Assembly (NCBI RefSeq): GCF_003334385.1
Contig: NZ_QOWN01000014.1
Direction: 5' to 3' (one strand)
Length of the DNA stretch: 64,000 nt
Origin: Escherichia coli
GTDB taxonomy: Bacteria > Pseudomonadota > Gammaproteobacteria > Enterobacterales > Enterobacteriaceae
Under the pieces are notes generated by a model. It had not been told where the DNA came from. It worked only from the letters and a program-made list of their open reading frames with translations, and searched no databases. Shown piece after piece: positions 26,756 through 28,903 of this stretch. Positions within the stretch are counted from its first letter, which is position 1. Each line of letters starts with the position of its first letter. The translations under genes and the position numbers were made by a program.

Positions 26756-28903
26756 ATGAAAAAAGTCGTCACGGTTTGCCCCTATTGCGCATCAGGTTGC
26801 AAAATCAACCTGGTCGTCGATAACGGCAAAATCGTCCGGGCGGAGGCAGCGCAGGGGAAAACCAACCAGGGTACCCTGTGTCTGAAGGGTTATTATGGCT
26901 GGGACTTCATTAACGATACCCAGATCCTGACCCCGCGCCTGAAAACCCCCATGATCCGTCGCCAGCGTGGCGGCAAACTCGAACCTGTTTCCTGGGATGA
27001 GGCACTGAATTACGTTGCCGAGCGCCTGAGCGCCATCAAAGAGAAGTACGGTCCGGATGCCATCCAGACGACCGGCTCCTCGCGTGGTACGGGTAACGAA
27101 ACCAACTATGTAATGCAAAAATTTGCGCGCGCCGTTATTGGTACCAATAACGTTGACTGCTGCGCTCGTGTCTGACACGGCCCATCGGTTGCAGGTCTGC
27201 ACCAATCGGTCGGTAATGGCGCAATGAGCAATGCTATTAACGAAATTGATAATACCGATTTAGTGTTCGTTTTCGGGTACAACCCGGCGGATTCCCACCC
27301 AATCGTAGCGAATCACGTAATTAACGCTAAACGTAACGGGGCGAAAATTATCGTCTGCGATCCGCGCAAAATTGAAACCGCGCGCATTGCTGACATGCAC
27401 ATTGCACTGAAAAACGGCTCGAACATCGCGCTGTTGAATGCGATGGGCCATGTCATTATTGAAGAAAATTTGTACGACAAAGCATTCGTCGCTTCCCGTA
27501 CAGAAGGCTTTGAAGAGTATCGTAAAATCGTTGAAGGCTACACGCCGGAGTCGGTTGAAGATATCACCGGCGTCAGCGCCAGTGAGATTCGTCAGGCGGC
27601 ACGGATGTATGCCCAGGCGAAAAGCGCCGCCATCCTGTGGGGCATGGGTGTAACCCAGTTCTACCAGGGCGTGGAAACCGTGCGTTCTCTGACCAGCCTC
27701 GCGATGCTGACCGGTAACCTCGGTAAGCCACATGCGGGTGTTAACCCGGTTCGTGGTCAGAACAACGTACAGGGTGCCTGCGATATGGGCGCGCTGCCGG
27801 ATACGTATCCGGGATACCAGTACGTGAAAGATCCGGCTAACCGCGAGAAATTCGCCAAAGCCTGGGGCGTGGAAAGCCTGCCAGCGCATACCGGCTATCG
27901 CATCAGCGAGCTACCGCACCGCGCAGCGCATGGCGAAGTGCGTGCCGCGTACATTATGGGCGAAGATCCGCTGCAAACTGACGCGGAGCTGTCGGCAGTA
28001 CGTAAAGCCTTTGAAGATCTGGAACTGGTTATCGTTCAGGACATCTTTATGACCAAAACCGCGTCGGCGGCGGATGTTATTTTACCGTCAACGTCGTGGG
28101 GCGAGCATGAAGGCGTGTTTACTGCGGCTGACCGTGGCTTCCAGCGTTTCTTCAAGGCGGTTGAACCGAAATGGGATCTGAAAACGGACTGGCAAATCAT
28201 CAGTGAAATCGCCACCCGTATGGGTTATCCGATGCACTACAACAACACCCAGGAGATCTGGGATGAGTTGCGTCATCTGTGCCCGGATTTCTACGGTGCG
28301 ACTTACGAGAAAATGGGCGAACTGGGCTTCATTCAGTGGCCTTGCCGCGATACTTCAGATGCCGATCAGGGGACTTCTTATCTGTTTAAAGAGAAGTTTG
28401 ATACCCCGAACGGTCTGGCGCAGTTCTTCACCTGCGACTGGGTAGCGCCAATCGACAAACTCACCGACGAGTACCCGATGGTACTGTCAACGGTGCGTGA
28501 AGTTGGTCACTACTCTTGCCGTTCGATGACCGGTAACTGTGCGGCACTGGCGGCGCTGGCTGATGAACCTGGCTACGCACAAATCAATACCGAAGACGCC
28601 AAACGTCTGGGTATTGAAGATGAGGCATTGGTTTGGGTGCACTCGCGTAAAGGCAAAATTATCACCCGTGCGCAGGTCAGCGATCGTCCGAACAAAGGGG
28701 CGATTTACATGACCTACCAGTGGTGGATTGGTGCCTGTAACGAGCTGGTTACCGAAAACTTAAGCCCGATTACGAAAACGCCGGAATACAAATACTGCGC
28801 CGTGCGCGTCGAGCCGATCGCCGATCAGCGCGCCGCCGAGCAGTACGTGATTGACGAGTACAACAAGTTGAAAACTCGCCTGCGCGAAGCGGCACTGGCG
28901 TAA
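26756..28903 (+). CDS. fdhF: Formate dehydrogenase H (selenocysteine-containing molybdoenzyme of formate hydrogenlyase)
   Basis: 715 codons in one frame; in-frame TGA at 27173-27175 followed by the SECIS hairpin; N-terminal Fe-S motif CPYCASGCKINLVVDNG. Confidence 0.95.
27173..27221 (+). other. Selenocysteine UGA codon plus SECIS recoding element of fdhF
   Basis: TGA then CACGGCCCATCGGTTGCAGGTCTGCACCAATCGGTCGGTAATGGCG, recognised as the classic fdhF SECIS stem-loop. Confidence 0.9.

Follow-up and report, generated by a model that had tools for sequence, protein, structure and literature searches.

The selenocysteine recoding site of the Escherichia coli fdhF gene has been known for decades, and it is recorded in Rfam, RefSeq and the PDB. 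Its stem-loop is the model bacterial SECIS, which is described by the Rfam family SECIS_2 (RF01988). When the U of UGA is counted as nt 1, the element is about 40 nt long and has a minimal 17-nt upper hairpin (nt 15-31) at 11 nt from the UGA; the bulged U17 and the apical-loop residues G23 and U24 are the SelB contacts, and the lower stem is dispensable for SelB binding (PMC8659212). UGA140 directly precedes the SECIS, which encodes residues 141-153 (PMC4513850). SelB-GTP, loaded with Sec-tRNA(Sec), docks on the apical hairpin and brings its tRNA to the A-site UGA (PMC4513850, PMC8659212). Both SelB binding and SECIS-dependent insertion of selenocysteine have been published for codons 130-179 of fdhF, a fragment identical to the one here, and 30-40% of the UGA codons were recoded in vivo (PMC4513850); RF2 terminates on the remaining ribosomes (PMC4513850, PMC8659212). 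The SECIS criteria used in the present analysis were taken from a review (PMC8659212) and a 2015 study by Kotini et al. (PMC4513850).

Several other systems are related to this element. The eukaryotic and archaeal SECIS (for example, Rfam SECIS_1) share the general logic, in which a cis-acting RNA structure, working through a dedicated elongation factor, turns UGA into a selenocysteine codon. These elements are located in untranslated regions and act at a distance, and the eukaryotic ones use a kink-turn together with SBP2 and eEFSec. The fdhF SECIS, as is generally known, differs from them in lying inside the coding sequence, at a fixed distance of 11 nt, and in being bound directly by SelB. 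The Rfam family SECIS_3 (RF01989) likewise describes a stem-loop that immediately follows an in-frame UGA. Related proteins are the FdhF-like paralogues and orthologues with cysteine in Enterobacterales and other bacteria, which share the active-site motif CCARV-x-HGPSV(A/S/T)GL and a similar length, with about 575 codons after the site; however, these genes carry TGC or TGT rather than TGA, show no synonymous constraint after that codon, and fell below the SECIS_2 threshold at 10 of 10 loci.

The SECIS element of fdhF

The window is the whole 64-kb stretch of E. coli DNA analysed here. It aligned to K-12 MG1655 with 99.87% identity over positions 1-29949 and 99.05% over 29689-64000, and is not MG1655 itself. 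The fdhF gene, encoding formate dehydrogenase H, occupies positions 26756..28903 on the + strand, from the ATG at 26756 to the terminal TAA at 28901-28903. Translation gave 715 sense codons in a single frame, in which the only internal stop is the TGA at 27173..27175, codon 140; this is the codon recoded as selenocysteine (UGA140), and it is kept across the species scan described below.

The sequence 3' of this codon has the published anatomy. The spacer (nt 4-14) is the 11-nt CACGGCCCAUC at 27176..27186, and it doubles as the 5' strand of the dispensable lower stem. It is followed by the minimal SECIS, the 17-nt SelB-binding hairpin GGUUGCAGGUCUGCACC at 27187..27203 (nt 15-31), as read and folded, with the bulged U17 at 27189 and the apical loop GGUC at 27194-27197, in which G23 is 27195 and U24 is 27196. 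Nucleotides 32-42 (27204..27214) complete the lower stem as its 3' arm, according to the minimum free energy (MFE) fold, the Rfam structure and the per-pair counts. An outer 5-bp helix pairs 27168-27172 with 27218-27222 and encloses the UGA.

The Rfam search placed SECIS_2 at 27168..27222, an extent that includes the outer helix; the match runs through the whole 55-position model (1-55) and scores 87.1 bits, above the gathering score of 70 (E ~ 1e-18). This was the sole SECIS hit reaching threshold in the 64-kb window. The SECIS_3 model overlaps it at 27170-27228 but scores 35.8 bits, short of its gathering score of 63, so the fdhF site is below threshold and is not a member of that family. 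Compared with RF01988, the fdhF site is the same element, with a full model match, the same anatomy and no substantive difference. The SECIS_2 score reflects homology rather than independent structural proof, as the model was probably trained on the same enterobacterial sequences.

Folding of the segment 27173-27221 gave a stem-loop that spans nt 3-42 and is capped by a GGUC tetraloop, with an MFE of -14.9 kcal/mol. The stability of this hairpin is not above chance: the mean of the shuffled sequences was -13.7 (z = -0.49), and 54 of the 200 shuffles were at least as good. What does rise above chance is the particular geometry and sequence, as scored by Rfam, together with their conservation among species. 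Thermodynamic stability was also tried as a SECIS criterion and was rejected, on account of this z value and of the similar fold energies of the TGA and TGC genes (see below).

Altogether, the fdhF site has every feature that the published criteria name. The site has an in-frame UGA in a continuous selenoprotein frame; a stem-loop of about 40 nt directly 3' of it and inside the coding sequence; a 17-nt hairpin 11 nt past the UGA, with the bulged U17 and with G23/U24; a SECIS_2 score above the gathering score; and RNA-level selection, seen as synonymous conservation and compensatory changes, which possibly reflect few evolutionary events. An earlier note on this DNA, made from the sequence alone, had named the gene fdhF and described a 715-codon frame with a TGA at codon 140, and both the translation and the alignment to annotated fdhF (100% identity) agree with it. 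The note had also quoted a 40-nt string after the TGA as able to fold into the SelB-binding stem-loop. That string is found exactly at 27176-27221 and does adopt the GGUC fold recognized by SECIS_2, although it is 46 nt long, not 40. The folding check that the note proposed has a divided outcome: the hairpin does occur at the right spacing, but its stability equals that of shuffled sequence and is not discriminating.

Synonymous constraint in TGA genes and cysteine homologues

The comparative test was made independent of the Rfam run because the SECIS_2 model was probably built from the same enterobacterial sequences. One genome per species was scanned with the degenerate pattern CCARV-[TGA/TGC/TGT]-HGP, in which the upper hairpin was left unconstrained. 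The scan found at least 120 loci with at least 121 sites; the matches listed comprise 58 TGA, 38 TGC and 25 TGT sites (63 with a cysteine codon). About 575 open in-frame codons follow the site in all of the listed matches, and the median for the 58 TGA sites is 575.

The two groups differ sharply over the hairpin. U17, G23 and U24 are invariant in 58/58 of the listed TGA sites; whereas U/G/U at these positions was found in 16 of the 62 scored cysteine-codon sites. Only four distinct 17-mers occur among the 58 listed TGA sites; whereas nearly every 17-mer of the cysteine sites is unique. Relatedness within each group was controlled for by the pairwise divergence at synonymous third positions. 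Both flanks are about equally diverged in the two groups, with values of 0.47 (TGA) and 0.48 (Cys) upstream, over codons 90-131, and of 0.42 and 0.47 downstream, over codons 161-219. Over the SECIS core (codons 144-153), however, the divergence is 0.14 in the TGA genes and 0.56 in the cysteine homologues. In the apical hairpin (codons 146-149) it is 0.00 against 0.26-0.73 per codon, and the third positions of these four codons are invariant in the listed TGA genes. Since the flanks are equally diverged and only the TGA genes are frozen over the SECIS, the constraint acts at the RNA level and goes with the TGA. Judged from synonymous divergence, RNA-level selection on the SECIS is evident and is specific to the TGA-bearing orthologues.

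These data bear on one alternative, that the UGA is read without selenocysteine, for example by a near-cognate tRNA-Trp, and that the hairpin is a by-product of encoding the peptide HGPSVAGLHQSVG. The hairpin is indeed no more stable than shuffles or than the cysteine homologues, the 41-nt fold energy being -13.3 in the TGA genes and -13.2 in the TGC homologues among the listed sites. Moreover, the cysteine homologues encode a very similar peptide (HGPSVAGLQ...), and because of this shared coding sequence they score weakly on SECIS_2, with 26-46 bits. Nevertheless, with nearly the same peptide to encode, the synonymous sites diverge in the cysteine homologues and are frozen in codons 146-149 of the TGA genes, and the compensatory base-pair changes described below keep the stem. 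The gathering score of SECIS_2 was reached at 10/10 TGA loci from other species (71.3-86.3 bits) and at 0/10 cysteine-codon loci, the best of which had 45.8 bits. A control construct lacking the SECIS had also been designed in published work to measure the misreading of UGA independent of selenocysteine (PMC4513850). Reading of the UGA without selenocysteine is very improbable.

The pairing of the stem was examined in 32 distinct 55-mers from the listed matches of the species scan. In the register given in the literature, where U17 is bulged and nt 18 and 29 are paired, 92% of the cells are paired, versus 22-49% for shifted partners. Compensatory changes are seen at two pairs of the upper stem, each in six sequences: G15-C31 is replaced by U-A, and U18-A29 by A-U. 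The Rfam consensus and the MFE fold use a different register, with U17 paired and U18 bulged. This register was considered and rejected: it leaves 6/32 sequences unpaired at one position; whereas the U17-bulge register is preferred because the nt 18-29 pair then becomes compensatory in these six sequences. The covariation thus favours the invariant U17 as the published bulge. The six covarying sequences share one variant hairpin and may belong to perhaps one clade, so very few independent events may be represented. The lower stem is more poorly conserved: at several of its pairs, between 4 and 23 of the 32 sequences are unpaired. This poorer upkeep would fit its reported dispensability for SelB binding (PMC8659212).

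The outer helix is paired in 99.4% of the cells across the 32 distinct sequences, which show one-sided C-G/U-G changes only. The third-position divergence is 0.27 in the TGA genes versus 0.66 in the cysteine homologues at codon 139, and 0.10 versus 0.60 at codon 155. Codon 154, which is unpaired and lies between these two codons, varies freely (0.50). The outer helix around the UGA might be under an RNA-level selection of its own and have a role beyond the minimal SelB hairpin, although we regard this as unlikely. One possibility is that it might shape the presentation of the UGA or the timing relative to RF2. If true, such selection would merely refine a known element, as Rfam already includes this helix in its model.

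Reading frame, transcription unit and the mdtO TGA

A mechanical ORF list divides fdhF into an ORF of 139 aa (26756..27175) and one of 559 aa (27224..28903) in the same frame. Codons 141-156 fall outside both ORFs because the second one begins at the first ATG after the TGA. Taken at face value, these two ORFs would suggest that the TGA is a genuine stop, and that the locus is a pseudogene or two genes of 139 aa and 559 aa. The recoding efficiency of only 30-40% also means that some ribosomes do terminate at UGA140 (PMC4513850). However, the two pieces share one frame, and the codons between them are conserved coding sequence. The TGA followed by about 575 open codons recurs in the 58 listed genomes. 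RefSeq annotates fdhF as one 2148-nt CDS, 'formate dehydrogenase subunit alpha / formate dehydrogenase H'.

The protein structures provide further evidence against a genuine stop. The conceptual FdhF, in which residue 140 is written as X, aligns along its full length (residues 1-715; E = 0) to PDB 1aa6, 1fdi, 1fdo, 2iv2 and 7z0t. The translation is identical to the FDH-H structures (1AA6, 1FDO, 7Z0T) in all 715 residues, and these PDB chains have a non-standard residue at position 140. FdhF is thus identical to the characterised molybdopterin selenoenzyme, including the position of residue 140. The solved structures hold an uninterrupted chain of 715 residues, which already refutes the reading as a stop, and we consider it extremely improbable.

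The context of the gene was also searched for transcription signals. A sigma-54-type -24/-12 motif, TGGCATAAAAGATGCA (GG-N10-GC), was read from the sequence at 26689..26704 on the + strand, upstream of the fdhF start; given the known regulation of fdhF, it is a putative sigma-54/FhlA site. A search of the + strand over 26500-29050 gave no sigma-70-like site. An intrinsic-terminator-like element lies at 28917..28945 on the + strand, 14 nt past the fdhF stop, and consists of a hairpin (28917-28938) with 8 pairs, 5 of them G-C, and then the T-run TTTTTTT. Another terminator-like hairpin follows mdtP at 26565-26590, and no terminator-like site was found on the + strand inside the fdhF CDS. Between the two pieces, the + strand has neither a sigma-70-like promoter nor a terminator-like site, which also argues against two genes. 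As terminator-like hairpins flank fdhF and none lies inside it, the locus resembles one transcription unit encoding one protein. The earlier note had called the split into two ORFs an annotation artefact, and the single frame of both halves, the single RefSeq CDS and the full-length PDB chain bear this out; halves in different frames, which it named as a refutation, were not what the translation gave.

The note had further contrasted fdhF with mdtO, whose TGA it held to lack such a structure, and this contrast holds. The mdtO gene (23044-25095) has an in-frame TGA at 24160-24162, codon 373, where both MG1655 and HS30-1 have TGG (Trp). The window mdtO also differs at 24752 (Arg570His), and these differences are absent from MG1655. 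The sequence after the mdtO TGA folds no better than shuffles (z = +0.09), and no Rfam SECIS match was found there even at E <= 10. No complete RefSeq E. coli genome has the mdtO TGA, the best of 5409 genomes having one mismatch in 121 nt. From these comparisons, the mdtO TGA is an ordinary nonsense mutation (TGG to TGA) confined to this strain, although it may possibly be a sequencing error.

The presence of this private nonsense TGA in the same window is the one point in favour of a similar origin for the fdhF TGA, as a sequencing error or strain-specific nonsense mutation; but the segment 26600-29000 is 100% identical to many independent E. coli chromosomes, the fdhF locus occurs in 5420/5426 complete RefSeq E. 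coli genomes, and the fdhF TGA is conserved across genera, whereas none of the 5409 matching genomes has the mdtO TGA, so that the probability of such an origin is negligible.

Selenocysteine decoding at UGA140 and its meaning

The site is almost certainly the canonical bacterial signal by which selenocysteine is inserted in E. coli fdhF. When a ribosome nears UGA140, the mRNA just 3' of it would form the SECIS stem-loop. According to the literature, SelB with Sec-tRNA(Sec) and GTP would then bind the 17-nt hairpin at the apex, making contact with the bulged U17 and the loop residues G23/U24. The fixed 11-nt spacing would bring the tethered tRNA into the A site of the ribosome, so that the UGA would be read as selenocysteine; this decoding is expected to compete with release factor RF2. 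The product would be full-length formate dehydrogenase H, 715 residues long and with Sec140 at the active site, the chemistry of Sec140 being likewise drawn from the literature. Published work on the identical sequence gave results opposite to those expected if the SelB- and SECIS-dependent reading were wrong (PMC4513850, PMC8659212).

The machinery for selenocysteine insertion would be encoded outside the window. None of selA, selB, selC and selD lies within the 64 kb, and no tRNA genes were found there. The map position of selC is distant, and its absence from the window is expected. A tRNA-Sec query matched a feature annotated as tRNA-Sec in 5425/5426 complete E. coli genomes. The MG1655 annotation includes selB and selA (b3590, b3591) and selD (b1764). 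The sel genes, whose presence elsewhere in the genome the earlier note had proposed to check, are thus present at the species level.

The fdhF gene is the founding example of bacterial selenocysteine recoding, and its rediscovery in this window has no discovery value in itself. With respect to the recognition of such elements, free energy fails to tell a true SECIS from shuffles or from the cysteine homologues; whereas the covariance models, together with the contrast in synonymous divergence between TGA and cysteine genes, separate the real SECIS cleanly. For genome annotation, naive ORF callers split fdhF, and a gene in which an in-frame TGA coincides with a SECIS_2 match should not be flagged as a pseudogene.

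Putative promoter motif and paralogues of fdhF

The region upstream of fdhF contains a putative sigma-54-type -24/-12 motif (TGGCATAAAAGATGCA; 26689-26704, + strand), which lies about 50 nt before the ATG and has the typical GG-N10-GC spacing of such promoters. On the + strand of 26500-29050, no sigma-70-like site was found. The putative motif agrees with the FhlA/sigma-54 control under which fdhF is known to stand.

The species scan showed that, among the loci listed (L002-L121), many Enterobacterales genomes contain a Sec-type fdhF (TGA and SECIS) together with one or two Cys-codon paralogues. 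For example, both types are present in Citrobacter werkmanii (L004/L005) and Pluralibacter gergoviae (L024-L026). The active-site motif of the Cys-codon paralogues is CCARV-C-HGPSVAGL, the same as in the Sec-type fdhF; these paralogues provided a natural control in the analysis of synonymous-site constraint. Two matches to the sok antitoxin RNA of the hok/sok type I toxin-antitoxin system were also observed in a single Enterobacter-group locus (L112, 3260-3425 and 3823-3987, - strand), about 1.7-2.4 kb away from the fdhF SECIS.

Premature TGA in mdtO

The mdtO gene (23044-25095, + strand) has a premature TGA at codon 373 (24160-24162), which is TGG (Trp) in MG1655 and HS30-1; a second G-to-A change at 24752 results in Arg570His. 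The earlier note held that this TGA lacks a SECIS-type structure, and indeed no SECIS was found 3' of it. The complete RefSeq E. coli genomes all lack this TGA; across the 5409 of them that matched, the best match was 120/121 nt. Either a sequencing error gave rise to the TGA, or it is a nonsense mutation private to this strain that inactivates the permease of the MdtNOP pump.

Repeat arrays and small RNAs

The window also contains a full-length match (146 bits) to the Hfq-binding sRNA sraL/RyjA (47718-47858, + strand), the counterpart of MG1655 ryjA, which adjoins soxR. Rfam matches to naRNA4, a REP-derived 'nucleoid-associated RNA', are located at 44-320, 2796-2876 and 40409-40480. The three copies at the extreme start of the window are in tandem with a 100-nt period; this array is also present in MG1655, and the BLAST matches are offset by multiples of 100 nt.

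Further naRNA4 matches (29691-29761 and 29804-29874, - strand) belong to a REP/BIME-type repeat array in the yjcO-gltP intergenic region (29689-29949). The array of MG1655 is longer by about 340 nt, which is roughly three extra 113-nt units. The identity to MG1655 also drops at this array, being 99.87% over the part of the window to its left and 99.05% over the part to its right; this suggests that a recombination boundary is located there.
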